Shown here: positions 11,882-58,019 of the stretch, one piece after another | How positions within the stretch are numbered: the first letter of the stretch is position 1 | Layout of the letters: each line of letters opens with the position of its first letter | Assembly (NCBI GenBank): GCA_040905715.1 | Contig: JBBDRA010000003.1 | Span: forward strand, 135,075 to 199,074 | DNA: 64,000 nucleotides | Direction: 5' to 3' | DNA from: Minisyncoccota bacterium | GTDB taxonomy: Bacteria; Patescibacteriota; Minisyncoccia; Phycocordibacterales; CSBR16-193 | Program-made: the position numbers and the translations under genes | The notes under the pieces: model-generated | The model's database searches: none | Told to the model about the DNA's origin: nothing | Seen by the model: only the letters and a program-made list of their open reading frames with translations

Positions 11882-11950
11882 CAGTAAAAATTTAGTATCG
11901 GAAGACCCGAATACCCTTATTTTTAGGGATTTCTAGAAACCGATGAAAGT

Positions 11951-24406: not shown

Positions 24407-24408
24407 TT

Positions 24409-26688: not shown

Positions 26689-26690
26689 TT

Positions 26691-27383
26691 ATGTCATCCC
26701 GTCAAGTAACAAATTGGATTTCTCTTTCTGACATGATGACAGGGTTAATGCTGGTCTTTCTCTTGATTGCTGTTTTGAGTATTGCGCAGGTTGTTGCAAA
26801 AGAAGAAGAGCGACAGGAATTATTGAATGAATATGATTTATCTAAGGAGGAAATTTACAATGATCTAGAAGATACGTTTGGAGACAAAAAAGAAGAATGG
26901 GGAATTGAGATAAGTCGAGATTTGAGCATCAAATTTCAAAATCCTGACGTATTGTTTGGTTATTTAAGTTCTGATATCTCCTCAGAATTTGAAACTATTC
27001 TAGAAGAATTTATTCCTTCGTATCTAAAGATAATAAATAAAGAAAAATATCAAGACAAAATTAAAGAAGTTCGCGTTGAGGGTCATACAGCTGATTGGAA
27101 TGATTATATGTTTACGGTTAAATTGTCTCAAGAAAGGGCAAATGCTGTATTAAGGACTATACTTAACAGTAGCTATTACAACAATTTAGATGCTAAAACA
27201 AAAGATAAAATTAAGTTTTGGTTTACAGCTAATGGACTGGGAAATGGTAGAACTTTGGACTCAGAAGGTGAGTTTACTTATTATTCCGATAAAGATATAA
27301 GCACAAACTCTCGTCGAGTTGAGTTTAGGATTGTGACAACAAGTGATGAACTAATTGAGGAGATTATCAATAGACAGCAATAG
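26691..27383 (+). CDS. MotB/ZorB-like protein: N-terminal TM with conserved Asp plus C-terminal OmpA-like peptidoglycan-binding domain
   Basis: WISLSDMMTGLMLVFLLIA parallels the MotB channel helix (W..yADfMTamMafFlv), including the protonatable Asp. The C-terminal VRVEGHTADWNDY...LSQERANAVLRTIL is the OmpA/MotB signature. Confidence 0.7.
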   Translation: MSSRQVTNWISLSDMMTGLMLVFLLIAVLSIAQVVAKEEERQELLNEYDLSKEEIYNDLEDTFGDKKEEWGIEISRDLSIKFQNPDVLFGYLSSDISSEFETILEEFIPSYLKIINKEKYQDKIKEVRVEGHTADWNDYMFTVKLSQERANAVLRTILNSSYYNNLDAKTKDKIKFWFTANGLGNGRTLDSEGEFTYYSDKDISTNSRRVEFRIVTTSDELIEEIINRQQ

Positions 27384-27389
27384 AACATT

Positions 27390-28427
27390 ATGACTTTAAT
27401 GACAATATTTATAGTGGTTTGGATTGTGCTAACAATTTACATTCCATACAAATTTAAAGAAAGAGGTATCCAAGAGATGCAAACTATTGCAACTACGTTT
27501 GGTATCCTTGGAACATTTATCGGTATTATTGTTGCTTTGTATAATTTTGATACTTCGAACATTGAAGCCGCGGTTCCATTGTTGCTCGACGGATTAAAGT
27601 TTGCTTTTGTAACATCTATTTTTGGAATGTTAACATCTTTACTTATTGGACTTTTTCCTCAAAAATTTGGACACGGTGTTGCCAATGAAGAGGGTGTAAC
27701 TGAAGACAAGGATAAATCAGAGCCAGAATTACTCGCTGAGTTACTTTCAGAAGTTAAAATTCTTAATGGGAATATATCTGGAGAAAGCGATACTACTTTA
27801 ATTACGCAAATTCAAAAAATGCGAACAAGTATTGTAGATAAGCAAGATGATCTAAATAAGGCTTTTGACAAATTTGCCGAAGATATGGTTAATAGTAATA
27901 TTGACGCTCTCGCAGAAGCTATTGAAAAAGTAATGGGTGATTTTAACACGACAGTTAATGAAAAGTTGGGCAGGACCTTTGATGATTTTAAGAAATCAGT
28001 GGAAAATCTTAATGTTTGGCAATCTGAGTATAAAGCTCAGATATTGTCTCAAACTGAAAATATGAAATCAGTTGCAGACTCACTAAGTACTACAGAAAAA
28101 AGTATGAGTGAGGTTAAAGATTCTTATCAAGAAATTGTTTCTATAAAAGAAAAATTTGATGAGCTTCTTAAAAACCTGAATGCGCAATTACAAGGTAGTT
28201 TAGATTTTGCAGACGCAATGAAAGACTTAACAACTGATCTAGAAGGATCGGGCGATGTTATAAAAGAAGAGATGAAAGAGATTACTTATGGAGCTGCTAC
28301 AGAAATGGAAAAAACAATGAATAAAACATTAGCTGATTTTGGGAGTAGTTTAGCAGATATTTCTGGAAAATTAGCGGAGAATTTTGGAAAAATGCAGCGA
28401 GCACTTGATAGTCATGAAAATAACTAA
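27390..28427 (+). CDS. MotA/ExbB/TolQ-like proton-channel protein with ~240-aa C-terminal coiled-coil tail (compact ZorA-like)
   Basis: Three N-terminal TM helices carry the MotA-family motifs FGILGTFIGIIVAL and LKFAFVTSIFGMLTSL. The remainder is E/K/L/Q-rich and predicted coiled-coil. Confidence 0.6.
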   Translation: MTLMTIFIVVWIVLTIYIPYKFKERGIQEMQTIATTFGILGTFIGIIVALYNFDTSNIEAAVPLLLDGLKFAFVTSIFGMLTSLLIGLFPQKFGHGVANEEGVTEDKDKSEPELLAELLSEVKILNGNISGESDTTLITQIQKMRTSIVDKQDDLNKAFDKFAEDMVNSNIDALAEAIEKVMGDFNTTVNEKLGRTFDDFKKSVENLNVWQSEYKAQILSQTENMKSVADSLSTTEKSMSEVKDSYQEIVSIKEKFDELLKNLNAQLQGSLDFADAMKDLTTDLEGSGDVIKEEMKEITYGAATEMEKTMNKTLADFGSSLADISGKLAENFGKMQRALDSHENN

Positions 28428-28432
28428 TATCT

Positions 28433-29245
28433 ATGGAAAAGGACGAATTTAACAATAAAATATCGGATATAGTAAGCTATTTTGATGACATTAAACAAAG
28501 AATCGGTGCTAAAGATACGGGGTTTGTGATAGTGCCAAGAGAATTGAAAACTCCAACTGGTAAATTTAATGCTGGTAAACCAATTACTGGTGCTGAATTA
28601 CAAAGAATTTCTAAAAATTGGAAATCAAAAGATCCTTTGATTGATGAGGAAGGTAATGCGTTCGTTCTTTATATACCTGATTTTACAAGTAATCATTATA
28701 GGAGAGGCTTTTCTCCAGAAAATTTACCAAAGTATCATACTTCTTGGTGTTGGACATTAGATAATATGAAGGAATCAGGAAGAATGAAAAGATATATTAA
28801 AAAGACGGATATAGAAACAAATATCTTTAAAGGGAAAAAGGATGGAGATAGAAATATTGAGAGTGTATTATATGCTTGTCAAAATTGTAGAAAAACATTA
28901 GAAGATATTTACGGAAGAAATATGTATTTTGACGTTAAAAATATGGATATGCTCAAGTTTTTCTCTTTGTACGGAAAACATTATTTATATGACCCTAAAG
29001 TGAAAAAACCTTATTCTGTAATGTATCCAAAACATTGGGATGAAATTTCAAAGAAATATAGAGAAAAAGCAAATTGGAAGTGTGATCAGTGTGGTGAGTC
29101 TTTCGCGAATAACAAAAAGGAATTAGATGTTCACCATATAAATGGAATTAAAAGTGATGTTAGGGATACAAACCTAAAAGTTTTATGTAAAAAACATCAT
29201 GCTGAACAACCTATGCATAGTCATTATAACAAAATTATAAATTAG
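28433..29245 (+). CDS. HNH endonuclease (ZorE-like)
   Basis: C-terminal HNH motif CDQCGESF...DVHHINGIKSDVRDTNLKVLCKKHHA, plus an earlier CQNCRK cysteine pair (zinc-binding). Starts 5 nt after the preceding gene. Confidence 0.7.
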   Translation: MEKDEFNNKISDIVSYFDDIKQRIGAKDTGFVIVPRELKTPTGKFNAGKPITGAELQRISKNWKSKDPLIDEEGNAFVLYIPDFTSNHYRRGFSPENLPKYHTSWCWTLDNMKESGRMKRYIKKTDIETNIFKGKKDGDRNIESVLYACQNCRKTLEDIYGRNMYFDVKNMDMLKFFSLYGKHYLYDPKVKKPYSVMYPKHWDEISKKYREKANWKCDQCGESFANNKKELDVHHINGIKSDVRDTNLKVLCKKHHAEQPMHSHYNKIIN

Positions 29246-29250
29246 TATTT

Positions 29251-30723
29251 ATGAATTTAACAAAAACAGACTTTAAAGAATACTTAATTTGCCCCAAATG
29301 GTTATGGGTAAAGAAAAAGAAACCTGAACTTGCAGTTGAGGGTGAGATGTCGCTATTCCTGAAGAAACTTATTAAAGATGGATATGAGGTTGAGGAATTC
29401 GCTCAGCAGATGTTTCCAAGTGGTGTTGAGATAACTGGCAACTCAGGTGTACTGAAAGAAAAAACTCAGGAATATCTAGAAAAAAATCAAACAATGTTTC
29501 AAGCGACTTTTGAGACAGACAGAGGCTTGTTTGCAAAGGCAGACGTTCTCGAATTTGATGAAGAAAGTGGTAAGTGGAATATCTATGAAATTAAGGCAAG
29601 TTCTTCAATCAAGACCGATCTTCAACATAATCATCTAAAAGATATTACATTTCAAACAATCGTCGCCGAAGAATCAGGGATTCCTATAAATAAAAGTTTT
29701 ATCATCCATATCAATAAGGAATACAAACGAGAGGGTGAAATAAACCCAAGAGAATTATTTGTTATAGAAGACGTCTCTAAAGATGTCCAAGAAGGTAAAG
29801 AAAAAGTAAACCAAGAAATTGAGACTGCTTTAGATTTTTTAAGTAAAGATAAAATCTCAATGGAAGGTTGTGAGTGTTTATACAAATCACACGGACAAAG
29901 ATGTGATTCATTCACAGTCTTTAACCCTAAGGTGCCTGAATATTCAGTTCATCATATCGTTGGTGGAAAGAAACTCCTCTCACTTATTGAAACTGATGTA
30001 TTTGATGTGAAAGAGATTCCAGAAGATTTTAATCTTACCGATAAGCAACAAGAAAAAGTCACACTCCAAAAAACCGGTAAGCCAATAATCGATGAAGAGT
30101 CAATCAGAGAAACGCTTTCTAATTTAACTTTCCCTCTGTATTTCTTAGATTATGAGACTTTTGGTAAGCCATATCCAATACTTGATGGATACACCTCAAA
30201 TCAGCAGATTGTATTTCAATACTCACTACATATTCTAAAGGAAGATGGTTCTTTAGAGCATCGTGAGTATTTAGCTGATGATTTTGAGAATGCCACAAAA
30301 GGACTCCTTGATCATATGAATGAGCATATTGGCCCTACAGGAACTGTTGTCGTCTGGTATGAATCATTTGAAAAAGGAAGAAATAGGGAGCTTGCTGAAA
30401 TACATTCAGAATATGCTGACTTTCTGCACAATATAAACAGCCGAATCTACGATCTAATGCTTATATTTAAAAAAGATTACCTACACCCTGATTTTTATGG
30501 GAGTGCCTCTATCAAAAAAGTGCTTCCTGTAATGCTTCCAGAATTATCCTACAAGAACTTAGAAGTTCAAGACGGAACAATGGCTATGAGCGAATGGGAG
30601 AAGATAGCTACTGGAAAAATTACAGGTGAAGAGGCAGAAGAATTACGAAAACATCTACTGGAATACTGTGAACGAGATACGTTTGCGATGGTTGAGTTGT
30701 TTAAGAAGCTACAACAATTATAA
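29251..30723 (+). CDS. Cas4/RecB-like PD-(D/E)xK nuclease with Fe-S cysteine set, fused to a C-terminal RNase-H-like domain (DUF2779-like architecture)
   Basis: N-terminal YLICPKWLW. Catalytic ADVLEFDE...IYEIKAS (D...ExK). The Cys cluster CECLYKSHGQRC together with the N-terminal Cys gives a Cas4-type 4-Cys arrangement. The C-terminal LYFLDYETF...VVVWYESFEKG resembles the FLDFET RNase-H-like domain. Confidence 0.6.
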   Translation: MNLTKTDFKEYLICPKWLWVKKKKPELAVEGEMSLFLKKLIKDGYEVEEFAQQMFPSGVEITGNSGVLKEKTQEYLEKNQTMFQATFETDRGLFAKADVLEFDEESGKWNIYEIKASSSIKTDLQHNHLKDITFQTIVAEESGIPINKSFIIHINKEYKREGEINPRELFVIEDVSKDVQEGKEKVNQEIETALDFLSKDKISMEGCECLYKSHGQRCDSFTVFNPKVPEYSVHHIVGGKKLLSLIETDVFDVKEIPEDFNLTDKQQEKVTLQKTGKPIIDEESIRETLSNLTFPLYFLDYETFGKPYPILDGYTSNQQIVFQYSLHILKEDGSLEHREYLADDFENATKGLLDHMNEHIGPTGTVVVWYESFEKGRNRELAEIHSEYADFLHNINSRIYDLMLIFKKDYLHPDFYGSASIKKVLPVMLPELSYKNLEVQDGTMAMSEWEKIATGKITGEEAEELRKHLLEYCERDTFAMVELFKKLQQL

Positions 30724-31663: not shown

Positions 31664-32278
31664 TTACCGTTTATTTCTCCTTATCTTTTTTCTATCAAGA
31701 AGTTTCTGAAGATTATCCGCCACCTCTTTAGCTCCGTCTATTTTCAATTTATCTTTTACATCATAAAACTGATCAAAGAAATCATTTATAATATGACGCA
31801 CCTCCTCGCTAGTTCGTTCTTTGGTTCCAAGTTCTTTAATTCTTTTCGATAGCTCGTGAACCAAATCTTCTTTACTTATTTTCTGTTTTTTTCTGCCTCT
31901 ATACTTTTCTATATTGGGTTCTTTATAACCACAAACCCGACATGTTTCTCCAGATTCAAGTTTGTGTGGATGAGTAACTGGATCGACATAAGTTGTACGA
32001 ACTGGTTTGTATCTCGGATTGTTGTATTGAAGCCAGAATATAATAAGGCGAGCATTTTCGTTTTTGATGCCTTTAATAACCGCTGACTCAGCCATGTCAT
32101 TTATGTTCTGCCGACCTATTTCCAATATCGCATCAGTCTGATCACGAAAGTCTTTATCATCCTTACGCCATCTGTAGTAGGTGGTTCGATCAAGGCCGAT
32201 TTTCTTACAGGCAAAAGACACAATTGGTGTCTCTGCCAATATTTGTAATAGTTTCGATTTATCACCCAACCTAGCCAT
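31664..32278 (-). CDS. Phage terminase small subunit (TerS)-like HTH protein
   Basis: N-terminal HTH PIVSFACKKIGLDRTTYYRWRKDDKDF followed by NARLIIFWLQYNNPRY. Compare the aaIFwLKNRrPExW pattern of phage TerS proteins. Confidence 0.5.
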   Translation of the reverse strand: MARLGDKSKLLQILAETPIVSFACKKIGLDRTTYYRWRKDDKDFRDQTDAILEIGRQNINDMAESAVIKGIKNENARLIIFWLQYNNPRYKPVRTTYVDPVTHPHKLESGETCRVCGYKEPNIEKYRGRKKQKISKEDLVHELSKRIKELGTKERTSEEVRHIINDFFDQFYDVKDKLKIDGAKEVADNLQKLLDRKKIRRNKR

Positions 32279-33587
32279 TAATCTTTACCCGTTTCTTACC
32301 CGTATATTTCTCCCATCTATTCAAGATCACTTCCGTATAGACATTCGATTTTTCCATGAGGAAACAACGCCTATTTAACCTATTGGCTGCGATTAAGGTA
32401 GATCCGCTTCCACCAAACGGTTCATACACCAATTCGTCTCTTTTCGTTAGTATCTTTATATACGGAATCAGTATTTCTACAGGTTTCGTGCCAAAGATAA
32501 TTCCCTGACCGCTAGATTTTTCATCCGCCGCATTATGTTCAATAAAGTCAGTTGGGCAGTACTTTTTGTTTTTTCCATATGACTCCCAGTGTGGTTTGCC
32601 GGATATAGCAAACAGAGCGGTTTCGTATTCATTTTCAACAAGTTCCCCCTCTTGTTCTAAATTAACCTCTTTGTTATCCGTACCAACCATAGCAATGTCA
32701 TACTTTGAAAAGAGTTTGTGCTTTCCGGCATACCCTTGATTTCTGTTGGGGAGATGCCAGATAAGCATATTCCTGACTTTCCAGTATTTCTCCATCTCAT
32801 TCCAGATCGTCCTGATATTTTTCCAGTTTTCATAGACAATGATAGCGAAATGCTCGTCTTGTATTTTATTCACATTCGCCATCCACTTTTCGGTAAAGTC
32901 TTCGGGGATAGATTCGGTTTCTAAGTACCTTCTGTTTTTCTTGGCTCCAAAGCCGGTGGTTGCTTCACCGTGTTTAGTCTTGCCGTGTAGGTAATCTAAA
33001 ATATATGGAGGGTCCGTCATAACCATCTGGGCTTTTTCTTTACCAAACAGTTTTGTGACATCTGCCTCTGTTGTGCTATCACCACACATTAAGCGTGACC
33101 CATCGAGATCATAGATATCTCCCTTTTTGACAGTGACTTCTTTGATATCCAGTTTTTCTAGTTCTTTTTGGAGATCAAAAAGTTCTTCTTCGTGATCTTC
33201 GTCGAAAATAATATCTAGTTCTTCGGAATCAAATCCGATGTCAGCTAGAATGGTTTCATCGAATTCTGCCAAAAGGTCATAATTAAATTCTCCTTGATTT
33301 TTGTTTAAACGAAGATTTAATTCTTTTTCTTTTTCCTCGGTTAGATCAAGAAAAACCACAGGAATAGTTGTGTGACCAAGCTCCTTACACACCTCGAGTC
33401 GAAAGTGGCCACCAATAACGACATTGGTTCTCTCTTTATTTTTATTAACAATCAACGGATCAATTGTGCCAAAACGATTGATACTCTCTTTTAATTGTTT
33501 TTTCTGAAATTCATCCCATGTACGAGGATTATATTCAGAAGCGTGAAGTAGATTTATATCTACATATTCTATTTTGATGTTGCTCAT
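32271..33587 (-). CDS. ParB-like nuclease domain fused to N6-adenine/N4-cytosine DNA methyltransferase (orphan MTase)
   Basis: N-terminal ParB/Srx domain (IEYVDINLLHASEYNPRTW...GGHFRLEVCKELG). MTase motif IV MVMTDPPY and motif I VYEPFGGSGSTLIAA. No adjacent restriction endonuclease. Confidence 0.8.
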   Translation of the reverse strand: MSNIKIEYVDINLLHASEYNPRTWDEFQKKQLKESINRFGTIDPLIVNKNKERTNVVIGGHFRLEVCKELGHTTIPVVFLDLTEEKEKELNLRLNKNQGEFNYDLLAEFDETILADIGFDSEELDIIFDEDHEEELFDLQKELEKLDIKEVTVKKGDIYDLDGSRLMCGDSTTEADVTKLFGKEKAQMVMTDPPYILDYLHGKTKHGEATTGFGAKKNRRYLETESIPEDFTEKWMANVNKIQDEHFAIIVYENWKNIRTIWNEMEKYWKVRNMLIWHLPNRNQGYAGKHKLFSKYDIAMVGTDNKEVNLEQEGELVENEYETALFAISGKPHWESYGKNKKYCPTDFIEHNAADEKSSGQGIIFGTKPVEILIPYIKILTKRDELVYEPFGGSGSTLIAANRLNRRCFLMEKSNVYTEVILNRWEKYTGKKRVKING

Positions 33588-41775: not shown

Positions 41776-42363
41776 TCATTGATCCTGCTTGTAACTTCCG
41801 GGTAACAGGTTTAGTTCTTGAAGTGGAAAAAGGCGGATAAGCGGTCGCCCTTGAATAAGTTCGCGTTCGAGCGGTCCCCAGCTGCGAGAGTCTGAACTTG
41901 CCTGGCGGTTATCTCCTAAAACAAAGTATTCATCGTTCTTGAGAGAGGTTCGGAGACTGTCTATTTTTGTATGTTCAACGTATGGTTCATCAAGAAGAAT
42001 TCCATTGGGGTGTTCAGCGTTGTGTATGATGACATCTCCCCGGTTTATCTCCACTGTTTCTCCGGGCAGACCGACAATACGCTTAATGAAGAACGTGGAC
42101 CTGTCTTCAGGGGAACGAAATACGATCACGTCACCACGATGAGGATTATTGAGCTGATAACTTAGTTGGTCAACGATCAGATACTCACCGGTATCAAATG
42201 TCGGAGCCATTGACTGACCATTGACAATGAACGGTTGGGCAATAAAGATCCTGAACGGTACAACAATGATCAGTGCAATAAATGCAAAGCGAATAACATC
42301 AATAAAAAATGAGGAGGCAATCGAGCGCGGCTGAGGAGGGGTTTGGGGATGTTCAAGGCTCAT
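41776..42363 (-). CDS. lepB: Signal peptidase I
   Basis: N-terminal TM. Catalytic-Ser box GQSMAPTF, Lys box, and box E VLGDNRQASSDSRSWGP. Confidence 0.85.
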   Translation of the reverse strand: MSLEHPQTPPQPRSIASSFFIDVIRFAFIALIIVVPFRIFIAQPFIVNGQSMAPTFDTGEYLIVDQLSYQLNNPHRGDVIVFRSPEDRSTFFIKRIVGLPGETVEINRGDVIIHNAEHPNGILLDEPYVEHTKIDSLRTSLKNDEYFVLGDNRQASSDSRSWGPLERELIQGRPLIRLFPLQELNLLPGSYKQDQ

Positions 42364-48810: not shown

Positions 48811-49338
48811 ATGACTGACCCTGCACATAACTGCGAACAACTTGGTTTACAGCCCGGACAACATGTAGCTGATCTTGGGTCAGGTGCCGGGTACTATACG
48901 ATAGAGCTTGCTAAACGTGTTGGCACAGAAGGAAAGGTGTTTGCGATCGATGTGCGCAAGGATCTATTGGAAAAAGTAAAAAGTGCAGCACGAGATGAAG
49001 GGTTTGAAAATGTTGAAGTGGCTTGGGGAAATATAGAGGTGGAGAATGGAACCCGACTGCGTAGTGATTCGATCGACGTTGTGATCATAGCGAACACACT
49101 TTTTCAGATAGAAGATCAGGCTGGCTTGGCACGGGAGACGGTGCGCATTCTCAAGCCGAAGGGTACGTTGCTCGTGGTTGATTGGACAGGTTCGCACGGT
49201 GGAATTGGGCCGGTTGAAGAGCAGGTTGTGCCGGAAGAGAAAGCGCGAGAGTTATTTGAACTTGCCGGTCTTGAATTTGCAAATTCTATATCGACCGGTG
49301 AACATCATTACGGATTTATAATGGAAAATCGAACATGA
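48811..49338 (+). CDS. Small class I SAM-dependent methyltransferase
   Basis: Motif I VADLGSGAGYYTIELAKRVG, motif II KVFAIDV and an acidic motif. 175 aa. Confidence 0.6.
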   Translation: MTDPAHNCEQLGLQPGQHVADLGSGAGYYTIELAKRVGTEGKVFAIDVRKDLLEKVKSAARDEGFENVEVAWGNIEVENGTRLRSDSIDVVIIANTLFQIEDQAGLARETVRILKPKGTLLVVDWTGSHGGIGPVEEQVVPEEKARELFELAGLEFANSISTGEHHYGFIMENRT

Positions 49339-50633
49339 CAGATCTATCCCCCTTCAAGGTTGCTGTTTTAATTGGCTTTGGGCTCATGCTTTTTGGCGGT
49401 TTTATTGCGCTTACGTTGTTTTCCGGTGCGGGTGGTGGTGAGACGGTGACTATTAATCTATGGGGCACGGCGCCACAAAGTATTGTAAGAGAGGCTATTA
49501 AACAATCTGTGCCGGACGATACAACGGTTCGAGTTGAGTATATAGAAAAGGAAGCGGATACATTTGATACAGAGTTATTAGAAGCACTTGCTGCAGGAGA
49601 GGGGCCTGACCTGTTTTTCTTGCCGCAAGACAAAATATTGAAGCACCAAGGCAAACTTTGGACTATTCCGTTTGAGTCGTATGAAGAGCGAAGGTTCCAG
49701 GATACGTTTGCGAGTGTTACTGAGGTTTACCTTACATCGCAAGGATCGATCGGTCTGCCGATCATTGTTGATCCAATGGTGATGTACTGGAACCGAACGC
49801 TTTTCGATCAACATAGAATTTCCGCACCCCCGCAAACATGGGATAGTTTTAACAACGAGCCTCTTCGTTCGTTTATCGACAGAGATGGCCAGCAGATAGA
49901 CCAAGCAATGATCGCTTTTGGTAACTTTAGTAATATTACAAACGCAAAAGACATACTTACCACACTGGTCATGCAGTCAGGGTCTCCGTTAGTAGAGCGC
50001 CAAGGTCTAGATACGTATCGGGCGGTCATGGGCATTTCTCAGGAAGGACAGGTGATCTCTTCGGCTGTCGCTGCAGTGAACTTCTATACCCAATTTGCCG
50101 ATCCGAATAAGGTTGTCTATACCTGGAACAACTCTCTCCCTGATTCAAAGCAGATGTTCTTGAACGGTGACTTGGCGGTTTACGTAGGTTTTGCCTCAGA
50201 GCGTAATGATCTTATGCGGGAGAATCCTAACTTGGATTTTGGGGTGGCTATGCTTCCTCAGTCTTCCGGGAGAGATCAGCAATTAACCGGTGCGCGACTG
50301 GAGGCCCTTGCGATACCGTCTCAATCGCAAAAGAAAGGGGTGGCACTCACTGCTGCGGCACTGCTCACGGAAGGTGAGGGTGCGCGCATTATTGCTGAAT
50401 GGAGCGGCTTGCCACCGGCACGCCGAGATCTGTTGTCTGAAACACAGAGTCGGTCGCATATGGACGTATTCCATGATTCTGCTTTTATTTCTCGAAGCTG
50501 GTTCGATCCGGAGCCGGAATCAAGCACAGAGGTTTTTCGGGAAATGATACAGTCGATCCAGTCAGGTCGGTTGCAGCCAGCTGAAGCTATAGGTCGAGCG
50601 AATAGAGAGCTGCAAAATCTTTTGGACCAGTGA
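49335..50633 (+). CDS. Extracellular solute-binding protein, family 1-like (ABC transporter SBP), N-terminal membrane anchor
   Basis: N-terminal TM, then ITINLWG, PDLFFLPQD, LPIIVDPMVMYWNRTLFD and GDLAVYVGFASE, which parallel family 1 SBP blocks. Confidence 0.55.
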   Translation: MTDLSPFKVAVLIGFGLMLFGGFIALTLFSGAGGGETVTINLWGTAPQSIVREAIKQSVPDDTTVRVEYIEKEADTFDTELLEALAAGEGPDLFFLPQDKILKHQGKLWTIPFESYEERRFQDTFASVTEVYLTSQGSIGLPIIVDPMVMYWNRTLFDQHRISAPPQTWDSFNNEPLRSFIDRDGQQIDQAMIAFGNFSNITNAKDILTTLVMQSGSPLVERQGLDTYRAVMGISQEGQVISSAVAAVNFYTQFADPNKVVYTWNNSLPDSKQMFLNGDLAVYVGFASERNDLMRENPNLDFGVAMLPQSSGRDQQLTGARLEALAIPSQSQKKGVALTAAALLTEGEGARIIAEWSGLPPARRDLLSETQSRSHMDVFHDSAFISRSWFDPEPESSTEVFREMIQSIQSGRLQPAEAIGRANRELQNLLDQ

Positions 50634-50634: not shown

Positions 50635-51111
50635 ATGACCACGATACTAAAACACAATAAACTAATGTGGGCGGTATGTAGTACTGTTGCGTTGCTTGCT
50701 GTAGTTGTTGGAGGGGTCGCGCCCACGCAAGCTAGCGCGCAGGAGCCTGGTGACTGTCGAGCAGATGGAGGGGGTGGCGTGTTGAGCGGGCTCGTTCCAT
50801 GCGGGTGCGATACTAATGGGGACGATATAGTGAATGGCGATGAGCGCTGTGATTTTTCAGATATAATGACGCTGATCCAGAATATTATCACCTGGATCAT
50901 TCTGTTCACTATCCCGGTCGCTGCTTTGATGTTCTCGTATGCTGGCTTCTTATTGATATCTGCGCAGGGTGACGAAGGGAAAATAAGGCAAGGCAAGCAG
51001 ATATTTGGATATGTGCTGACAGGTTTTGTGTTTGTGCTAGCAGCGTGGCTGATCGTGTACACAGTTGCCAGTGTGTTATTAGACGACGAATTTTTACAAT
51101 TTCTTGAGTAA
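50635..51111 (+). CDS. VirB2/TrbC-like small secreted hairpin-membrane protein, paralog 1 of 6
   Basis: Signal peptide, a Cys-containing N-terminal region, then two hydrophobic helices separated by the short polar loop ISAQGDEGKIRQGKQ. Confidence 0.45.
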   Translation: MTTILKHNKLMWAVCSTVALLAVVVGGVAPTQASAQEPGDCRADGGGGVLSGLVPCGCDTNGDDIVNGDERCDFSDIMTLIQNIITWIILFTIPVAALMFSYAGFLLISAQGDEGKIRQGKQIFGYVLTGFVFVLAAWLIVYTVASVLLDDEFLQFLE

Positions 51112-51535
51112 TAATATGATCAATAAAAAGTATATCTCACTTGTTTTCTCGTATTGTCTCGTGTTCGTTTTTCTTGTAGCGCTGGTCACTCCTGTTGTTG
51201 TCGGGGCTCAAAGTGGGACAATCCCCGGTGATTCCGGAATACAGAATCCGCTTGGTGAAGATGGGCCAACTACATTAATGAGTTTCATTGAGATCATCAT
51301 TACTAATATAGTATTACCTATCGCTTCGGTAGTTGTGGTTCTAGCGATTATTTACAGCGGTTTTCTCTTTGTTGCAGCGCGTGGGAACCCGACTAAGCTT
51401 GAACATGCTCGTACGGCATTTACTTGGACAGTTGTTGGTACTGCTGTGCTTTTGGGCTCCTGGGTTATCGCAGCGGCGATCGAGGGGACGCTCTGTGAGA
51501 TCACTGACGGTAATATTCCGGGACTGTGTAATTAA
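51104..51535 (+). CDS. VirB2/TrbC-like small secreted hairpin-membrane protein, paralog 2
   Basis: Signal peptide plus two hydrophobic helices with loop AARGNPTKLEHART. C-terminal Cys pair. Confidence 0.45.
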   Translation: MSNNMINKKYISLVFSYCLVFVFLVALVTPVVVGAQSGTIPGDSGIQNPLGEDGPTTLMSFIEIIITNIVLPIASVVVVLAIIYSGFLFVAARGNPTKLEHARTAFTWTVVGTAVLLGSWVIAAAIEGTLCEITDGNIPGLCN

Positions 51536-51543
51536 TTCTAGCC

Positions 51544-51918
51544 ATGCGTAACTCTGTTTCTACCCAGTTTAAACTCATAGCAGCCTCACTGTTCGGATTG
51601 CTGATCATGACGGCCCCGTTTACAGTCAGTGCTCAGTCACCGGGAACGTTTGCGGAGGTTGTGGGCGAATTTATTAGTATACTTAACGTTCTTTTCCCGC
51701 TTCTTGTTCTGGCTGCCATCATGATGTTTTTTTTGGGGCTGGCTAAATACGTTTTTCGAGCTGATGAAGAACCAATGGTGCAGCAAGGAAAGTTCTTGAT
51801 GACTTGGGGACTCTTGGCGATATTTGTCTTATTCTCGATCTGGGGAATACTAGGTTTTATTTACGGCGAGTTTGGCTTTACTGATCCGTTCGGTGCGTTC
51901 TTGCTCCCAACGAGTTAG
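51544..51918 (+). CDS. VirB2/TrbC-like small secreted hairpin-membrane protein, paralog 3
   Basis: FLGLAKYVFRADEEPMVQQGKFLMTWGLLAIFVLFSIWGI is the conserved paralog core. Confidence 0.5.
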   Translation: MRNSVSTQFKLIAASLFGLLIMTAPFTVSAQSPGTFAEVVGEFISILNVLFPLLVLAAIMMFFLGLAKYVFRADEEPMVQQGKFLMTWGLLAIFVLFSIWGILGFIYGEFGFTDPFGAFLLPTS

Positions 51919-51935
51919 TTGCCTTCTTGTAGATC

Positions 51936-52343
51936 GTGTATACAAATTTCTATATGAAAAAATTCTTAAAAGAACAATGTTTTCTTCAAATGGTTATTTC
52001 AAGCTTGTTCATGTTACTCGTTGTTCCTGGTGTGGTGCGTGCGAGTAGCCATCTTGAAGTGGAAACAATGCTTGAAAACGTGATAGGGATCATTGAGACA
52101 TTAATTCAGGTCTCTTTTGTTCTTATATTGGTAGCCTTTTTCTGGGGACTCGCTCGGTATGTTTTTAATGCGGGCAGCGAAGCGTCGATCCAGCAAGGCA
52201 AGCGCATTATGACCGGTGGCGTTATTGCTTTGACGGTCGCTTCACTGATCTGGGGAATTATAACGTGGGTTCGTGTTGAATTAGGGATCAGTGACACGTC
52301 TACTATAGAAATAATAGAAGGTCCTGGTGGGAGCGGGGCATAG
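51936..52343 (+). CDS. VirB2/TrbC-like small secreted hairpin-membrane protein, paralog 4
   Basis: FWGLARYVFNAGSEASIQQGKRIMTGGVIALTVASLIWGI. Confidence 0.5.
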   Translation: MYTNFYMKKFLKEQCFLQMVISSLFMLLVVPGVVRASSHLEVETMLENVIGIIETLIQVSFVLILVAFFWGLARYVFNAGSEASIQQGKRIMTGGVIALTVASLIWGIITWVRVELGISDTSTIEIIEGPGGSGA

Positions 52344-52521
52344 AAGGGGTCGAGCGGAGGAGGAAGTCTACTTCCTCGTTCATCTTATTCCTTCAGGCTG
52401 CCCGGCGCAGCCGTGTATATAGTGTTGTTGTCCACAGAAGGGTCTAGTATAATGTTGTATGGGCTATTATAATGTTAAAAGCTACCTTTATTACCAATTA
52501 TCACTAACAGGAGCTAGTCAT

Positions 52522-52884
52522 ATGAAAAAACAATTTTTAATGTACGGAACGCTTGCAGCAGTAATGGTGTTGACACCAGCTGTAGCTCTTGCGCAGGACC
52601 TGTCAGGAGTAGAAAACCTCATTGATTCGGTGCAAGATATTGTTAACACTTTAATTCCGATCATGTTTGCATTGATCGTTATCGCATTCTTTTATGGATT
52701 GGCGCGATACGTATTCAATGCTGACAACGAAGACGCTCGTGATCAAGGAAAGCGGATTATGGTGGGTGGTGTTATTGCACTAACCGTTGCAGCTTTGATC
52801 TGGGGTATTGTTTCTTGGATCGGTAACATTCTTGGAATTGAAGAAGATTCTAACCAGACCGTACCAACTATAAGCGTACGTTAG
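52522..52884 (+). CDS. VirB2/TrbC-like small secreted hairpin-membrane protein, paralog 5
   Basis: Start chosen at the ATG (MKKQFLMYG...) preceded by AGGAG. FYGLARYVFNADNEDARDQGKRIMVGGVIALTVAALIWGI. Confidence 0.5.
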   Translation: MKKQFLMYGTLAAVMVLTPAVALAQDLSGVENLIDSVQDIVNTLIPIMFALIVIAFFYGLARYVFNADNEDARDQGKRIMVGGVIALTVAALIWGIVSWIGNILGIEEDSNQTVPTISVR

Positions 52885-52893
52885 CTTTAACTG

Positions 52894-53166
52894 ATGCCTT
52901 CTAACGTTCCAGAACTGCTCGATAAGATAAACGCCACGATCCTTAATCCACTGATCCTGCTCATGTTTACTGTCGCGACAGTACTCTTTGCATGGGGAGT
53001 GATAACATTCATCACGAGTGAAGAAGGGGGAGAGGCTCGACAGCAAGGAAAAACAAACCTTGTATACGGACTGCTCGGACTCTTTATCATGATCGCGGTC
53101 TACGGAATTATTAGGATCATTGGTGCGACGTTCGGTATACCTATCGCTGACCTCTATATTTTCTAG
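52894..53166 (+). CDS. VirB2/TrbC-like small hairpin-membrane protein, paralog 6 (no obvious cleavable signal)
   Basis: FAWGVITFITSEEGGEARQQGKTNLVYGLLGLFIMIAVYGI. Confidence 0.45.
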   Translation: MPSNVPELLDKINATILNPLILLMFTVATVLFAWGVITFITSEEGGEARQQGKTNLVYGLLGLFIMIAVYGIIRIIGATFGIPIADLYIF

Positions 53167-53248: not shown

Positions 53249-53830
53249 CTAATAATCCTTATATAAAGGCTGAACGACGATCGAACGATCAATCGGAGCA
53301 GTCACGTACACTGTGTCGTCCTCACCGATGTCTGGTTCTTCTCCGGGCAATATCCAAACCCCTTTATCGTTCCGGTCAGCCTTGAAGAGGTAATAGAAGT
53401 TACCCTCTTGGGAGGAAGTAACCTTTAGGGTCCAGGGCGTCCCGGGCTCACCTTCCAACCGGATCATCCGTTCCTCTCCCGCCTCCACGAAAATCTCTTC
53501 ACCTGCCCGATTGTATTGGGTCCATGGGACCGGCTCATTCCGAGTGCGTTGAACTCGACGATCAGATCTGTGTTCTTGATCGTCGGACAACAGCGGTGGA
53601 AGAAAGATAAAGGCGCCGATGATAACACCTGCCCAGATAAGTGTTTTTTTGAGAGAAGAGTTTCTTGCTCCAGAGGGAAGAGACATCTTGGGGATGTACG
53701 CCTTCATCGTTGCAAGATCGATCTTCCTCGTTTTTTTGGTTTTGCTCGTGAGGCTTTGGTCTCTAATAAGTCTCCAGACGCCAATGCAGAATACTATGAG
53801 TAAAAGGACGCTAACGAGTATAAGTGCCAT
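53249..53830 (-). CDS. Hypothetical membrane-anchored protein
   Basis: N-terminal TM ALILVSVLLLIVFCIGVW and a second TM (LIWAGVIIGAFIFLPPLL). No family recognised. Confidence 0.35.
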   Translation of the reverse strand: MALILVSVLLLIVFCIGVWRLIRDQSLTSKTKKTRKIDLATMKAYIPKMSLPSGARNSSLKKTLIWAGVIIGAFIFLPPLLSDDQEHRSDRRVQRTRNEPVPWTQYNRAGEEIFVEAGEERMIRLEGEPGTPWTLKVTSSQEGNFYYLFKADRNDKGVWILPGEEPDIGEDDTVYVTAPIDRSIVVQPLYKDY

Positions 53831-53973
53831 TTGGGTACCTCCGTGTTTGGTTGTGGTAAGGTTCAGTCAGTAGATATTATTACATATATGAATACATATG
53901 TCAATTTATATTGAATATAAAAAACTGCTCGTTGCTTGTGCAACGAGCAGGGGGTTAAAATAACATCTTACGT

Positions 53974-55275
53974 TTAGTCAATGTGCGCCTTGGAAATTGA
54001 TGTGACGCTCTTGATAAGATCATCGAAGGTGCCGCCTGTCATAAGCAAGTGATTGTTGCCCTGTTGAAGAGCTCTTTCCATTTGCTGGAGTTGGTAGGCA
54101 AGTCTGCCTTCGTCGTCTTTCATTTTCTTGGCTAGCTGTCCAACACCAAGAGCACGGGCCTTGTAGAGAGCTTTCTCAGCTTCTGCACGAGCTTTACCCT
54201 CAGATTCAATTACCTTTGCGCTCCCGATCCCTTCGAGTTCTAGTCGTTCTCTCTCTGCTTGGGCGTTCGTTATGGTCGTGCGTTTTTGAGCCAACGCACT
54301 GCTTGCCTCGGAAACTGATGCATTAACTACGCGAGGGATCCCAAAATCGGAAACCCAAACGCCTTCAACATCGATACCCCACCACTCCTTTTGTTTTGTG
54401 GAAGCATTTGATCCAGCTTCCACATCGTTTTCGGGTGGTTGCGCATCCGGTTCGCCGACCAGGAATTCGACAGCTTTGGTCAGTTGGTCGTTGATCCAGT
54501 GATGTCGCCGGGTTCCCTGTGCCAATGTTGTTTTTCCAGCAATGGCCTGAAGTGCAGGCTCAGCTGTCTGCATTTGATGCCGGTTGGCTTTGTTAACACT
54601 GCCCACCATTTTCAGAAATAGAGCATGGGCACCGGGTTCCCCATCTATCTTCCAGCGAACGACTACTCGGGGGCATGTGCTGATCCGTGCACCGTATGGT
54701 GACTGAGCGTCTTCTTCCCGTAACAGTTTCCCTTCCTCACCATCCGGATACTTAGCTGTTGCTGCCGGCTCCCAGACTACCTCAAAGGCATCTTCAACGA
54801 TAAACGCTTCATCGTTTTCAGAGGCACTTGTGCTGACAGGATTTCCCAATTCGTCTTTCTTGATGACAGAACCAAACTCAAGTTGTATGTAGTTTTGGGT
54901 TGCTGTTTCAAGAGAGGAGATGCCAAAGGGAACGAAGTGAATACCGGTGTCTGCGTGTTTGATCGGTGCTCCAAAGTAGAGTACTGTACCGATTTCGTCT
55001 ACTCTAACTTTTTTGAAACTAAAGATCGTGTAAATTGCAACCACGATTATGCCGGGAATTAACCAGCGGACGTCTGTAAACACAATAGGCAAGAGTAATC
55101 CCGCCAAAGCGATGACTAAGTAGATCCAGATGACTGTGCGAAGGAAGCTTACTTCCGTCTTCTTCATATCTTTACATATCCGTTCGATCGCTTCCTTTTT
55201 TCTCTGGTCAGCGGTACTGGGTTTTTCCGAGGCGGTTGAATCAGAACTCATGACGATCTTTCCTTCCTCTCCCAA
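53974..55275 (-). CDS. SPFH/band-7 (stomatin/prohibitin/flotillin-HflK-like) domain membrane protein
   Basis: N-terminal TM pair, then an SPFH-like core. The C-terminal Ala/Glu/Lys-rich helical region (AEAEKALYKARALGVGQLAKKMKDDEGRLAYQLQQMERALQQGNNHLLMTGG) is typical of band-7 proteins. Confidence 0.5.
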   Translation of the reverse strand: MGEEGKIVMSSDSTASEKPSTADQRKKEAIERICKDMKKTEVSFLRTVIWIYLVIALAGLLLPIVFTDVRWLIPGIIVVAIYTIFSFKKVRVDEIGTVLYFGAPIKHADTGIHFVPFGISSLETATQNYIQLEFGSVIKKDELGNPVSTSASENDEAFIVEDAFEVVWEPAATAKYPDGEEGKLLREEDAQSPYGARISTCPRVVVRWKIDGEPGAHALFLKMVGSVNKANRHQMQTAEPALQAIAGKTTLAQGTRRHHWINDQLTKAVEFLVGEPDAQPPENDVEAGSNASTKQKEWWGIDVEGVWVSDFGIPRVVNASVSEASSALAQKRTTITNAQAERERLELEGIGSAKVIESEGKARAEAEKALYKARALGVGQLAKKMKDDEGRLAYQLQQMERALQQGNNHLLMTGGTFDDLIKSVTSISKAHID

Positions 55276-55449
55276 TAGGGAGATATGTTGTAAGGTGCAC
55301 TTTGTGGGAGAACGAACTGGTTATAATAGTACTTAAATTAATGAATTTGTCAATATATTATATGGGTAATATTTTGACAAATAGGTGTTTAATGTTATAT
55401 TAAGTACACCTGATTGTTCCTTTTATACACTTGTTTGAAGGAGTGAAGT

Positions 55450-56154
55450 ATGACTTTGTCACCGACTGCATCCGTGTTTGGTTTATTTCTTGTTGTTGGG
55501 CTTCCGATCTTCTTAATGGTAGGGGTCTTTTGGGTGCTGATTCGAGGTTCTAAAAACATGGAGATTGAGGCTGAACGTAAGAAGCAGGCTGCGCGTAACC
55601 CACGGAAGCGCTACTATGGGCCCCCGTTTAAAGTTTGGCAGACGGTTTATGTTCCGGATATGGAACGTAAAGCTGTTGCTCAAAGTTTCCAAGTCCCAAA
55701 AGTAATCAATAAGCGGACAAAGGCAATGCTGCTCTCGGAGCAGTTTCCTTACTGGAGAAGCGGAAAAGTCTCCTTGGTTCGTACAACGCCTTATGACTTA
55801 GGTTTCGAGGCGGGGTGCGAAGGCCACGTTGCGGTCGACCTGAAAACTGAGCGTAAAACGATACTCATTAGAAGGGTCTTGGCGCGCGCTAAGAGTCTTG
55901 GGTTGAAACCGTGCCACCCGGTACTCCCTCTGTTTTTACGACTCCAATTAGATACCAAGGACAAGATAGAGGTTGTTGTCGATCCGGTCTCCTGTAACGA
56001 TACACGTTTATTCCGATGCATATTGCACTATGGGTTCAGTAATGATCGGAGTAGTAGTGTGGAGCGCTTCCGTGTTGAAGAGTTTGTGCCAATCGATGAG
56101 GGCGACGGAGTGGACGTGTTCACCCGACTGATCTTTGCTTTGCCGAACGAATGA
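55450..56154 (+). CDS. Hypothetical membrane-anchored protein
   Basis: N-terminal TM (VFGLFLVVGLPIFLMVGVFWVLI). No recognisable family. Confidence 0.35.
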   Translation: MTLSPTASVFGLFLVVGLPIFLMVGVFWVLIRGSKNMEIEAERKKQAARNPRKRYYGPPFKVWQTVYVPDMERKAVAQSFQVPKVINKRTKAMLLSEQFPYWRSGKVSLVRTTPYDLGFEAGCEGHVAVDLKTERKTILIRRVLARAKSLGLKPCHPVLPLFLRLQLDTKDKIEVVVDPVSCNDTRLFRCILHYGFSNDRSSSVERFRVEEFVPIDEGDGVDVFTRLIFALPNE

Positions 56155-56182
56155 TTATTTGGATTGATGTTTTTCACCAAAT

Positions 56183-56214
56183 CAAGCCCTCGCCTATAAA
56201 GCGAGGGCTTTTAA
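56183..56214 (+). terminator. Hairpin terminator
   Basis: aAGCCCTCGCctataaaGCGAGGGCTtttaaa. Confidence 0.45.
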
Positions 56215-56267
56215 ACAGGTGTTATATTTCTAACTGTTGAAGGTATTTTTAGTGGTTACTTATTATG

Positions 56268-56350
56268 TGGGCAGGGGGAGACTCGAACTCCCAAGCCGTA
56301 AAGGCACTAGCTCCTAAGGCTAGCGTGTATACCAATTCCACCACCTGCCC
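56268..56350 (-). tRNA. tRNA-Leu (anticodon TAG), long variable arm
   Basis: Reverse complement GGGCAGGTGGTGGAATTGGTATACACGCTAGCCTTAGGAGCTAGTGCCTTTACGGCTTGGGAGTTCGAGTCTCCCCCTGCCCA. Anticodon arm CTAGC-CTTAGGA-GCTAG. Confidence 0.8.
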
Positions 56351-56357: not shown

Positions 56358-58019
56358 CTATTGTACTAGCGCCACAACTGGTGTGAGTACGTAGCGCGTT
56401 GCCTCGCGCATCCACTCGTGTTCTCGGATCACATCCGCGATCGGCGGGCTCACCGTATAATACAGGGATACGAGAGAATTGCCAACCGGATTCGGCAGAA
56501 GTGTGTTGTCACGAAAATTACGAAGATGAACTATATCCTGATCAAGGTCAGTGCCGAATGCAGCTGTTGCGATGAAGCATCCACCACCGTCCTCAGGAGC
56601 CTCTTCGACCACGGCTACAGCGCACTGGAAAGTGAGAGTCCGCTCTTCTGTTTGTATGTCTACCTGTGCCTTCTTGATTCCAACGGTACCGTATACTCCA
56701 ATTGCACGGTCTGGATCATCGTTATCTTGATTAAGATCATTGTCGCCGTCCCATATATAGCTAAACTCTCGCGTATTAGCCCCGAACGCGTTTGCGCGCC
56801 ATTGGATTTCTTCACCAATAACATGCGGCGGACTTTCAACGTCGCAGGAGAGTCGGGCACTGTCAAGTTCTTCGGGTGGAAACTGCATGAACTCCGCCTT
56901 GCAGGGGAGTGTAATAGACTGATTTCCGGATGAGATAGTGACAATGCCATCCTTTATGCCGTCATTAAAGTATTCTTTGGTAACTGTGTGCTCACTGCTT
57001 TCAAGTCCCTCTGATCCTTCCCAGTCATACACAACGTCGTTTATACCGCCACGGGCGTTTGCTTCCCAGGTTATTTCATTTGTACGCGTATTTAGTTCTG
57101 CAGTGCACGAGCCGGTTAGTGGTGGTTCGATGACCTGTATAGACCGAGAACAAGTAAAGCTGGTACGGCTTTCTCCATCGGTGGAAACCGAAACAGAGGC
57201 TGTTTTTTGCCCCGTACTTTCGTATCGGATCACTCTTTGCTCTCCGGTTCCTTCAAGATCACCGCTTCCATCCCACTCATACTGATAGCGACCGGTACTG
57301 CCGCCAATAGCAAACGCGCGCCAATTAGCTTCTTGGTTAATTTCTATGCGTTCCTTCTCAGGTTCACATGATCCGGTTATGCCGGTAGTATCTATGTCCT
57401 CAGCTATTACTTCCTGTAGAACGGTAAATATCCGCTCTGCCATTATTTCGTATCCCTCGTCGTTTGGATGGACCGGATCGGAAAGACGCGATGGTTTACC
57501 GTGAATGTCTTGCATAATGTTGCGCACATACGCCGCATCGGTCTCGTCGGCAAGATCTTGATAGTCTTGTTCACGATCAAATCGAAACAGCTGTCCATGG
57601 GCGCTGGCTAAAATGACATGCGCTCCGTTATCCTGGATCCGAGTTACAATTTCCTCGAGGTTATCAAATGTTTCTTCTTTAGGTACATCTTGAAGTATAT
57701 CGTTGCCGCCAAGTAAAACTATGACAATGTCCGGATCTTTTCTGAGAACCGCGGTATCAAGTCTATTTAGAGCATCTTCAGTTGTGTCGCCGGTTCGACC
57801 TTCATTGTCGATCGAAAGTTCTGTCCAACGTTCCAGGTCGGAAACATATCCATTGTCGCTTGAACCAACGCCAACCGTGAGGCTGTCACCGAATGCGACA
57901 ATATCAAGATTATTGACTGGTGTTGCAGCAGAAAGGGTGAAGACAGGTATAAGTAAGACCGCGCCAACAAGTGCGCCAATGAGGAGCATGATCGTAATGA
58001 GTCGGCGGGAAAATATCAT
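56358..58019 (-). CDS. Secreted SGNH/GDSL hydrolase with three Ig-like repeat domains and a conserved Cys-containing C-terminal segment
   Basis: Signal peptide. Block I VAFGDSLTVGVG (GDS-L), block III LLGGNDIL, block V DPVHPNDEGY (DxxH). Three repeats of about 90 aa (WEANARGG..YDWEGSEGL, WRANAFGA..YIWDGDNDL, NWRAFAIGG..YEWDGSGDL). The C-terminus is GGGCFIATAAFG...LRNFRDNTLL. Confidence 0.75.
   Translation of the reverse strand: MIFSRRLITIMLLIGALVGAVLLIPVFTLSAATPVNNLDIVAFGDSLTVGVGSSDNGYVSDLERWTELSIDNEGRTGDTTEDALNRLDTAVLRKDPDIVIVLLGGNDILQDVPKEETFDNLEEIVTRIQDNGAHVILASAHGQLFRFDREQDYQDLADETDAAYVRNIMQDIHGKPSRLSDPVHPNDEGYEIMAERIFTVLQEVIAEDIDTTGITGSCEPEKERIEINQEANWRAFAIGGSTGRYQYEWDGSGDLEGTGEQRVIRYESTGQKTASVSVSTDGESRTSFTCSRSIQVIEPPLTGSCTAELNTRTNEITWEANARGGINDVVYDWEGSEGLESSEHTVTKEYFNDGIKDGIVTISSGNQSITLPCKAEFMQFPPEELDSARLSCDVESPPHVIGEEIQWRANAFGANTREFSYIWDGDNDLNQDNDDPDRAIGVYGTVGIKKAQVDIQTEERTLTFQCAVAVVEEAPEDGGGCFIATAAFGTDLDQDIVHLRNFRDNTLLPNPVGNSLVSLYYTVSPPIADVIREHEWMREATRYVLTPVVALVQ

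Follow-up and report, generated by a model that had tools for sequence, protein, structure and literature searches.

A tandem array of six divergent VirB2-like pilin genes downstream of a solute-binding-like gene in a Paceibacteria genome

A tandem array of six small genes, located at positions 50635-53166 in a window of 64,000 nucleotides (the whole stretch of contig JBBDRA010000003.1 that was analysed, from a Minisyncoccota bacterium of the Patescibacteria), has been characterized in the present study. All six products, P1-P6, belong to one family of type IV secretion system (T4SS) pilins, Pfam PF18895; their architecture is prepilin-like, and they are conserved in relatives as distinct orthologous subtypes in a fixed order. 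We consider it fairly probable that P1-P6 are VirB2-like pilins which together form a fixed set of subunits for the Patescibacteria T4SS, and that their genes are co-transcribed with the upstream gene for a solute-binding protein (SBP)-like protein. A sizeable part of bacterial diversity belongs to the Patescibacteria, which live attached to the cells of a host; in the single species in which this has been tested, the T4SS and the pilin array proved essential. The array in Paceibacteria appears as an ancient ordered set of non-redundant subunits, which favours a heteromeric structure over antigenic variation, and it is genomically uncoupled from virB4 yet tightly coupled to the SBP-like gene. 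If functional, the latter coupling would lead to a concrete hypothesis, open to testing, on the substrate bound or transported by the patescibacterial pilus.

Six divergent pilins of one family

The coordinates of the six open reading frames (ORFs) were checked in the window, and each is given with its PF18895 match:

50635..51111, + strand: P1, type-1 pilin, 158 amino acids (2.5e-10, 40.7 bits)
51116..51535, + strand: P2, type-2 pilin, 139 amino acids, or 143 from an alternative start at 51104 (3.9e-6, 27.3 bits)
51544..51918, + strand: P3, pilin of the 3/4/5 subgroup, 124 amino acids (5e-6, 26.9 bits)
51954..52343, + strand: P4, pilin of the 3/4/5 subgroup, 129 amino acids, or 135 from 51936 (1.2e-4, 22.6 bits)
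52522..52884, + strand: P5, pilin of the 3/4/5 subgroup, 120 amino acids, or 141 from 52459 (3.3e-8, 33.9 bits)
52894..53166, + strand: P6, type-6 pilin and last gene, 90 amino acids (5e-5, 23.7 bits)

The gaps from P1 to P6 are, in order, 4, 8, 35, 178 and 9 nt. The lengths of 158, 139, 124, 129, 120 and 90 amino acids follow from the probable true starts, which are those called by NCBI; the P5 start at 52522 is also backed by an AGGAG located 9 nt upstream of the ATG. A scan for promoters and terminators gave counts no different from those in shuffled sequences.

All six products align over approximately 75 residues, in which two strongly hydrophobic segments are joined by a short charged loop, as seen in both hydropathy profiles and the alignment. 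The pairwise identity of this hairpin ranges from 14 to 60% (60% for P4 and P5, 37% between P3 and either of these, and 14-31% for the remainder). AlphaFold2 (AF2) models are confident helical hairpins for P5 (pLDDT 84.6; helices 2-23, 27-65 and 70-103) and for P6 (pLDDT 85.5; helices 5-41 and 47-79). P1-P5 have the full prepilin architecture, a Sec signal peptide followed by the hairpin, with A-x-A-type sites reading ASA/QE in P1, VGA/QS in P2, VSA/QS in P3, VRA/SS in P4 and ALA/QD in P5 (the slash marks the junction). P6 is the hairpin alone and has no signal peptide; its ATG at 52894 closely follows the P5 stop at 52884. The P1 hairpin is preceded by a Cys-containing head (GDC...GLVPCGC...ERC.F), the GLVPC...C motif of which is invariant or nearly so in 14 homologues, and P2 has a conserved Cys pair in its C-terminal tail (LCEIT...GLCN).

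These results bear on an earlier note, made from the letters of the DNA, which had described six small co-directional ORFs of 90-158 amino acids with a shared signal peptide, two hydrophobic helices, a conserved QGK in the loop and, in P1 and P2, Cys pairs in the variable region. The ORFs are present exactly where they had been placed, and the hairpin is found in all six. The signal peptide is shared by P1-P5 and lacking in P6; the QGK loop recurs in five copies, with EHAR in its place in P2; and the Cys description holds for P1, with four N-terminal residues, but not for P2, in which the pair is C-terminal.

The family assignment is carried by PF18895 (T4SS_pilin), which matched all six copies with E values from 2.5e-10 to 1.2e-4. 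P1, P2, P3 and P5 exceed its gathering score of 26.6 bits, and P4 and P6 lie just below it. A family hidden Markov model (HMM) built from homologues also scored all six, with E values from 1e-23 to 1e-42 (3e-30 for P4 and 6e-23 for P6). The membership of all six in one Pfam family, their recovery by the family HMM and the conserved orthologues elsewhere together indicate a paralogous family far beyond chance. The family is very large, as a full-library profile search returned 104,352 cluster representatives at E <= 1e-3. The array proteins are identical to those of a Candidatus Paceibacterota metagenome assembly, and routine annotation overlooks most copies: NCBI names P1 as a 'pilin' (one of the six) and the other listed copies as 'hypothetical', and precomputed Pfam matches cover three of the six.

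The relationship to canonical pilins was assessed using seven annotated VirB2/TrbC proteins from conjugative plasmids, each encoded between VirB1 and VirB3 (MPF_T). In hhalign, the family profile matched this set with a probability of 67% and an E value of 5e-5 over 61 columns, corresponding to the whole hairpin, which is suggestive but short of the usual confidence level of 90-95%. The reversed-sequence control gave a probability of 0.2% and an E value of 0.35, and thus the match is not driven by composition. The A-x-A/Q junction is also common to VirB2, since A45, A47 and Q48 are invariant in the VirB2/TrbC alignment. Sub-threshold matches to PF04956 (TrbC/VirB2) were obtained for P5 (21.0 bits, 3.8e-4), P2 (20.3 bits, 6.6e-4) and P4 (15.9 bits, 0.015). 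In addition, five of the six copies weakly matched the NCBIfam model NF045849 for a pilin-like protein of Mycoplasma integrative and conjugative elements (ICEs), with E values from 3e-6 to 2.5e-3 and 17-27 bits against a cut-off of 40, and a weak match below cut-off was found for the NCBIfam TrwL pilin model (E 0.0064). When the family alignment was used for a sequence-profile search of the PDB, only spurious matches to membrane proteins and signal peptides (PsaF, GPCRs) appeared, and no pilins. The VirB2/TrbC-type reading of the earlier note is supported by the PF18895 matches in all six copies, the sub-threshold PF04956 matches in three, the hhalign result and the published arrays.

A holin or phage origin was considered and rejected. 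Among PHROGs, a single weak match was obtained, and that family has no assigned function; holin families were not hit, and IMG/VR viral contigs held no relatives. The neighbourhood of the array consists of housekeeping genes and is not a phage context.

A fixed set of subtypes and its upstream neighbours

Two related metagenome-assembled genomes (MAGs) have the same six genes, arranged identically and flanked by the SBP gene on one side and a GDSL lipase gene on the other. Each paralogue has one clear 1:1 orthologue there, with identities of 65-66% for P1, 64-70% for P2, 59-65% for P3, 44-47% for P4, 69-70% for P5 and 80-84% for P6 (89% for GyrA, for comparison), whereas cross-type identities reach only 16-50%. 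P4 is the fastest-evolving copy and P6 the most conserved, its orthologues likewise having 90 amino acids. Among the three genomes, 40-76% of the positions in the hairpin cores are invariant, compared with 6-29% in most tails; the P5 hairpin is almost invariant (core identity 73%), and the N- and C-terminal tails differ between the genomes. The four Cys residues of P1 and the C-terminal Cys pair of P2 are kept in all three, and the C-terminal tail of P2 is conserved.

This order extends well beyond the closest relatives. A search of 185,579 species-representative genomes with a type-1 alignment gave 80 loci, nearly all labelled Patescibacteria (one is labelled 'Pacearchaeota archaeon'), and in nearly all of them the type-1 gene, with its GLVPC...C motif, is the first in a co-directional array. 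The arrays contain mostly 5-6 pilin genes and in some cases up to 8. The P2 type is second in nearly all arrays and the P6 type last in most, so that the subtype order 1, 2, (3/4/5-like), 6 recurs across about 80 Paceibacteria species. Among 52 complete arrays, 5 hairpin modules were counted in 20, 6 in 20, 7 in 5 and 8 in 4; that is, 40 of the 52 contain 5-6 modules. A strict rule of always six was rejected, given this range of up to 8. Because six 1:1 orthologous subtypes keep a fixed order across relatives, the sequence comparison argues for a fixed multi-subunit set and not a fast-varying repertoire.

Variation in the form of the modules was also observed. In about 17 arrays, a gene in the third or fourth position encodes a fusion of two or three hairpins (e.g. 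L026 10779-11456 and L060 10732-11727). The full-library search also gave polypeptides (among them P0154, P0157, P0162 and P0190) with 6-16 matches to the pilin-hairpin profile, 16 such stretches being seen in one, so that single polypeptides with and without array context span 2-16 matches; the hairpins are in tandem in the sequences of P0154, P0157 and P0162, and both P0154 (552 amino acids) and P0157 (555 amino acids) consist of one signal peptide and six tandem hairpins in a single polypeptide. The fused genes and polyproteins indicate that the modules act together. At eight loci (L010, L018, L019, L022, L028, L045, L048 and L076), the head of the type-1 protein is enlarged to 300-1095 amino acids before the hairpin. 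These extensions are N-terminal, extracytoplasmic and unrelated to SBPs, and they may represent pilin-anchored surface domains.

Upstream of the array, and downstream of gyrA, two genes complete the conserved neighbourhood:

48811..49338, + strand: class I S-adenosylmethionine (SAM)-dependent methyltransferase, 175 amino acids (Pfam Methyltransf_31/25/11)
49335..50633, + strand: SBP-like protein of family 1 (sugar-type), exported and N-terminally membrane-anchored, 432 amino acids (Pfam SBP_bac_8, SBP_bac_1)

The methyltransferase stop and the SBP start overlap by 4 nt (ATGA), and the SBP gene ends with a gap of 1 nt before P1, as expected from the earlier note, which had placed the array downstream of a solute-binding-like protein. 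The SBP-like protein matched SBP_bac_8 at 2.3e-19 and SBP_bac_1 at 7.3e-14; its closest relatives in the PDB are distant sugar SBPs (5ci5, 1.9e-8; trehalose/maltose-binding protein), all matches to NCBIfam equivalogs fall far below the cut-offs, and it forms a tight orthologous group in the candidate phyla radiation (CPR). In 52 of 59 arrays, the SBP-like gene is located directly upstream on the same strand, with gaps mostly between -4 and +11 nt. Members of the methyltransferase family precede the array in 66 of 82 loci and often overlap the SBP gene (-4), and gyrA is present in 62 of 82; the downstream genes of related loci are far less conserved. The methyltransferase might be functionally linked to the pilins, as judged from this linkage. 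Neither the scanned window ORFs of at least 150 amino acids nor the annotated flank clusters of relatives yielded an ABC permease or ATPase domain, and none of 48 long pilin ORFs proved to be an SBP-pilin fusion.

Published systems, proposed assembly and competing readings

Tandem arrays of VirB2-like pilins are known from Patescibacteria. Using PF18895 and PF04956, Quinonero-Coronel et al. 2025 (Microb Genom 11:001409, PMC12102498) searched 3,035 genomes of this group and reported VirB4 in 2,417 assemblies, VirB2-like pilins in 1,948 of the VirB4-positive ones, and 441 tandem arrays of 2-11 pilin genes with a mean within-array identity of 25% and a maximum of 54%, commonest in Microgenomatia and Saccharimonadia; the assemblies carrying the present array are not listed in its tables. 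In Southlakia epibionticum ML1, the six pilin genes SEML1_0014-0019 are all essential by transposon sequencing (Tn-seq) (Wang et al. 2023 Cell, PMC10633639). Their products of 104-186 amino acids all belong to PF18895, some with weak PF04956 matches, and the genes stand beside those for VirB6-like, PrgI and VirB4-like proteins. These pilins are described in a review as structurally conserved and sequence-divergent. Since such arrays have already been published, the finding is largely known; the present array of divergent tandem pilins is a further example of the published kind, and the locus adds nothing categorically new.

Like S. epibionticum, the present organism has six tandem, co-directional and sequence-divergent PF18895 pilins; the classes differ (Paceibacteria here and Saccharimonadia there), and essentiality has been shown for S. 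epibionticum only. The array of S. epibionticum lies inside a T4SS cluster with VirB6-like, PrgI, VirB4-like and lysozyme genes that begins at SEML1_0004-0006, at the start of the genome numbering, whereas the present array follows gyrA, the methyltransferase and the SBP gene, with no T4SS gene found in 64 kb. In gene number and low identity it resembles the arrays of Quinonero-Coronel et al. (mean 25% there and 14-60% here), but that survey seems to have been linked to the surroundings of virB4 (Fig. S9 ring 5, 'array near virB4'), while the Paceibacteria arrays are unlinked from virB4 and linked to the SBP gene. Moreover, neither gyrA nor solute-binding genes are mentioned in PMC12102498. 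For these reasons, the virB4-unlinked, SBP-linked arrangement appears to be undescribed in the searchable literature, in which we found no description of the translationally coupled order gyrA-methyltransferase-SBP-pilins present in most of about 80 Paceibacteria species.

Compared with canonical VirB2/TrbC (the Agrobacterium T-pilin, PF04956, MPF_T), the array proteins share a long signal peptide with the A-x-A/Q junction and a mature hairpin of ~70-75 residues, and the profile match, suggestive in strength, spans the whole hairpin. They differ in a PF04956 score below gathering, a longer acidic inter-helix loop with QGK, a monoderm host, the absence of adjacent VirB1 and VirB3, and the presence of several non-redundant paralogues (five to eight) where canonical systems have one major pilin. 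Tandem virB2-like amplification is also known from Bartonella and Anaplasma phagocytophilum, an analogy cited in PMC12102498; the copies in those organisms are thought to be interchangeable and to serve immune evasion, whereas those described herein are ancient, positionally fixed orthologous subtypes. The pilin-like protein of Mycoplasma ICEs (NF045849, Mbov_0395/MMCAP2_0565 family) is likewise a small conjugal-transfer protein with two transmembrane (TM) segments in a wall-less monoderm, but it is single-copy and ICE-borne, and the matches of the array to its model are all below cut-off.

Herein, we propose how such a set might be assembled. P1-P5 would leave the cytoplasm through Sec and be cleaved by signal peptidase I, for which a LepB gene is present in the window at 41776-42363, and P6 would be inserted in the membrane without cleavage. 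The hairpins would be pooled in the cytoplasmic membrane, and a machine of VirB4, VirB3 (PrgI) and VirB6, encoded elsewhere in the genome, would build from them a single heteromeric structure on the surface, most probably a short pilus or a conduit leading to the host cell. In a filament of this type, the conserved hydrophobic cores would provide the packing, leaving the variable N- and C-terminal tails exposed. Of the six, P1 would be the copy best suited to the role of an exposed or tip (adhesive) subunit, because it bears Cys residues and its head is hundreds of residues long in other species; the mutually related P3-P5 are candidate bulk subunits, and P6 may be a special subunit. By analogy with S. 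epibionticum, the structure might serve an epibiotic lifestyle rather than conjugation. That orthology and order are fixed, and that each copy is essential in S. epibionticum, argues for non-redundant structural roles.

Several points weigh against this proposal. No copy reaches the PF04956 gathering score of 27.9 bits, and Foldseek against the PDB gave nothing significant, an archaeal conjugation pilus ranking 8th for P5 and 2nd for P6 with E > 1; because the hairpin is so simple a fold, that search is undiscriminating. VirB4, VirB6, PrgI and VirD4 were not found in the ORFs of at least 150 amino acids in the window, and no T4SS gene was found in roughly 2.6 kb beyond its left end or 7.6 kb beyond its right end (reached via other assemblies). 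The flanks of the 80 related arrays, out to 10 kb, likewise gave none of the four, in a search covering all ORFs of at least 550 amino acids and recurrent ORF clusters. VirB4, VirD4 and VirB6 were also not found at loci with solitary type-1 pilins. In a patescibacterial T4SS locus, pilin genes would be expected within ~20 coding sequences of virB4, virB6 or prgI, and in the stretches covered no such neighbour was found. The coupling to a T4SS thus rests on family-level literature and not on this genome. In addition, no T4SS pilus has been seen in any Patescibacterium, a review speaking only of the 'potential to elaborate conjugative pili', and polyproteins with six hairpins and 12 TM segments would be awkward for the extraction of subunits one by one.

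In the main rival, the six two-helix modules would lie side by side in the membrane as a heteromeric integral complex (a channel, pore or platform) that is never extruded as a pilus, possibly as part of the T4SS translocon or as a separate conduit. Single polypeptides with one signal peptide and six hairpins, the one with up to 16 stretches, and the two- and three-hairpin fusions in related arrays favour such a complex, and the fixed order and number of subunits, the lack of linkage to virB4 and the lack of any pilus observation in the literature consulted are consistent with it. However, homology at the family level is to the filament-forming VirB2, the variable, Cys-bearing and sometimes very large type-1 head better suits an exposed appendage, and fused subunits could still polymerise given linkers on the outside. 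We therefore regard a complex that stays in the membrane as rather unlikely. The place of the SBP-like protein raises a further question. It is conceivable, although quite improbable, that the SBP and the pilin array constitute one module for capturing, or docking on, a host-derived carbohydrate-like ligand, independent of or beside a classical T4SS. The abutting SBP gene in 52 of 59 arrays (1 nt from P1 in the window), the lack of ABC permease and ATPase domains among the scanned ORFs, the tight and seemingly CPR-restricted SBP family, and a synteny much better kept upstream than downstream all fit this view. Against this, the linkage could be a gene order inherited within one class, in which gyrA and other housekeeping genes are equally conserved; the long pilin ORFs include no SBP fusion; the accessible part of the annotation of the S. 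epibionticum T4SS locus, SEML1_0004-0019, shows no SBP; and cognate ABC genes may lie elsewhere in the genome. A related proposal, which we advance as speculative and unlikely, is that in Paceibacteria the pilin set has been split from virB4 and hard-wired into a conserved operon beside gyrA, with a SAM methyltransferase and an exported orphan sugar-SBP-like protein that would work together with the filament or complex. The hairpin subtypes, five or six in number and fixed in position, would make up one heteromeric assembly; in some cases they are fused into a single polypeptide. The SBP would then serve, for example, as a ligand-binding tip or docking subunit, or in the capture step of a pilus-coupled uptake from the host. 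If true, monoderms would have a T4SS-derived surface organelle whose architecture is new.

Two suggestions of the earlier note fared less well. The first was surface variation or a toxin/immunity repertoire. The corresponding rival is a diversification repertoire of interchangeable variants, giving antigenic or host-range variation of the kind proposed for the VirB2 of Bartonella and Anaplasma and suggested for Patescibacteria. The low identity of the paralogues, the tails that vary between related genomes and the gene number of 5 to 8 among species would be in keeping with a repertoire. It is contradicted by 1:1 orthologues at the same positions with conserved cores and far lower cross-type identity, by a subtype order kept across about 80 species, and by the individual essentiality of all six copies in S. 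epibionticum, which speaks against redundancy; neither repeats nor recombination cassettes are evident, and gene conversion seems unlikely, since DNA encoding proteins of 14-60% identity would be too diverged. We therefore hold a diversification repertoire to be highly improbable. The other suggestion was of bacteriocin-like or holin-like peptides, to which generic two-TM proteins unrelated to secretion may be added. Small size, a signal peptide and two hydrophobic helices would suit these readings, and the fold search returns many unrelated helical hairpins, but the profile matches are specific to T4SS pilin families, the reversed control shows that the VirB2 match does not arise from composition, PHROGs gave no holin or phage family match, viral contigs contain no relatives, and no immunity, ABC-export or lysis genes are adjacent. 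The bacteriocin and holin readings are essentially excluded.

Other features of the window

Between P6 and the GDSL lipase gene (53249-56350), the window contains genes for a 193-amino-acid membrane protein, an SPFH/Band-7 protein at 53974-55275 (-) and a 234-amino-acid protein of unknown function, followed by a tRNA-Leu at 56267-56350. These three genes and the tRNA-Leu are not at that position in the two closest relatives, and in a fragmented assembly of this organism the break falls exactly between P6 and the 193-amino-acid gene. SPFH genes are found downstream of the arrays in about a dozen other loci. The GDSL lipase/acylhydrolase itself (56358-58019, -) has internal repeated domains and ends in a C-terminal CFI-box-CTERM (NF041770, 9e-28), a putative sorting signal.

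A low-GC island (11900-35800; GC 0.32-0.39 versus 0.46-0.48) begins directly after a tRNA cluster (Val 11579-11653, Glu 11658-11730 and Ser 11799-11882) and was probably acquired horizontally. It carries a metabolic block (E1 dehydrogenase alpha/beta, aminotransferase, ATP-grasp/L-amino-acid ligases, NUDIX and 2-hydroxyacid dehydrogenase), a serine recombinase at 21121-22431 (-) and a ParB-methyltransferase at 32271-33587 (-). A defence cluster at 22739-30723 within the island comprises a type III restriction-modification system, with Mod at 22739-24406 (PADLOC MTase_III, 5e-75) and Res at 24409-26688; a type II Zorya system, with ZorB2 at 26691-27383 (1e-66), a short ZorA2 of 345 amino acids at 27390-28427 (1e-56) and the HNH protein ZorE2 at 28433-29245 (3e-43); and a Cas4-like/DUF2779 protein at 29251-30723. 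The occurrence of Zorya in a monoderm Patescibacterium may merit attention. Finally, 4663-9564 (+) encodes a protein of 1633 amino acids that has PKD/Ig-like repeats, lacks NCBIfam matches and may be a large surface adhesin.

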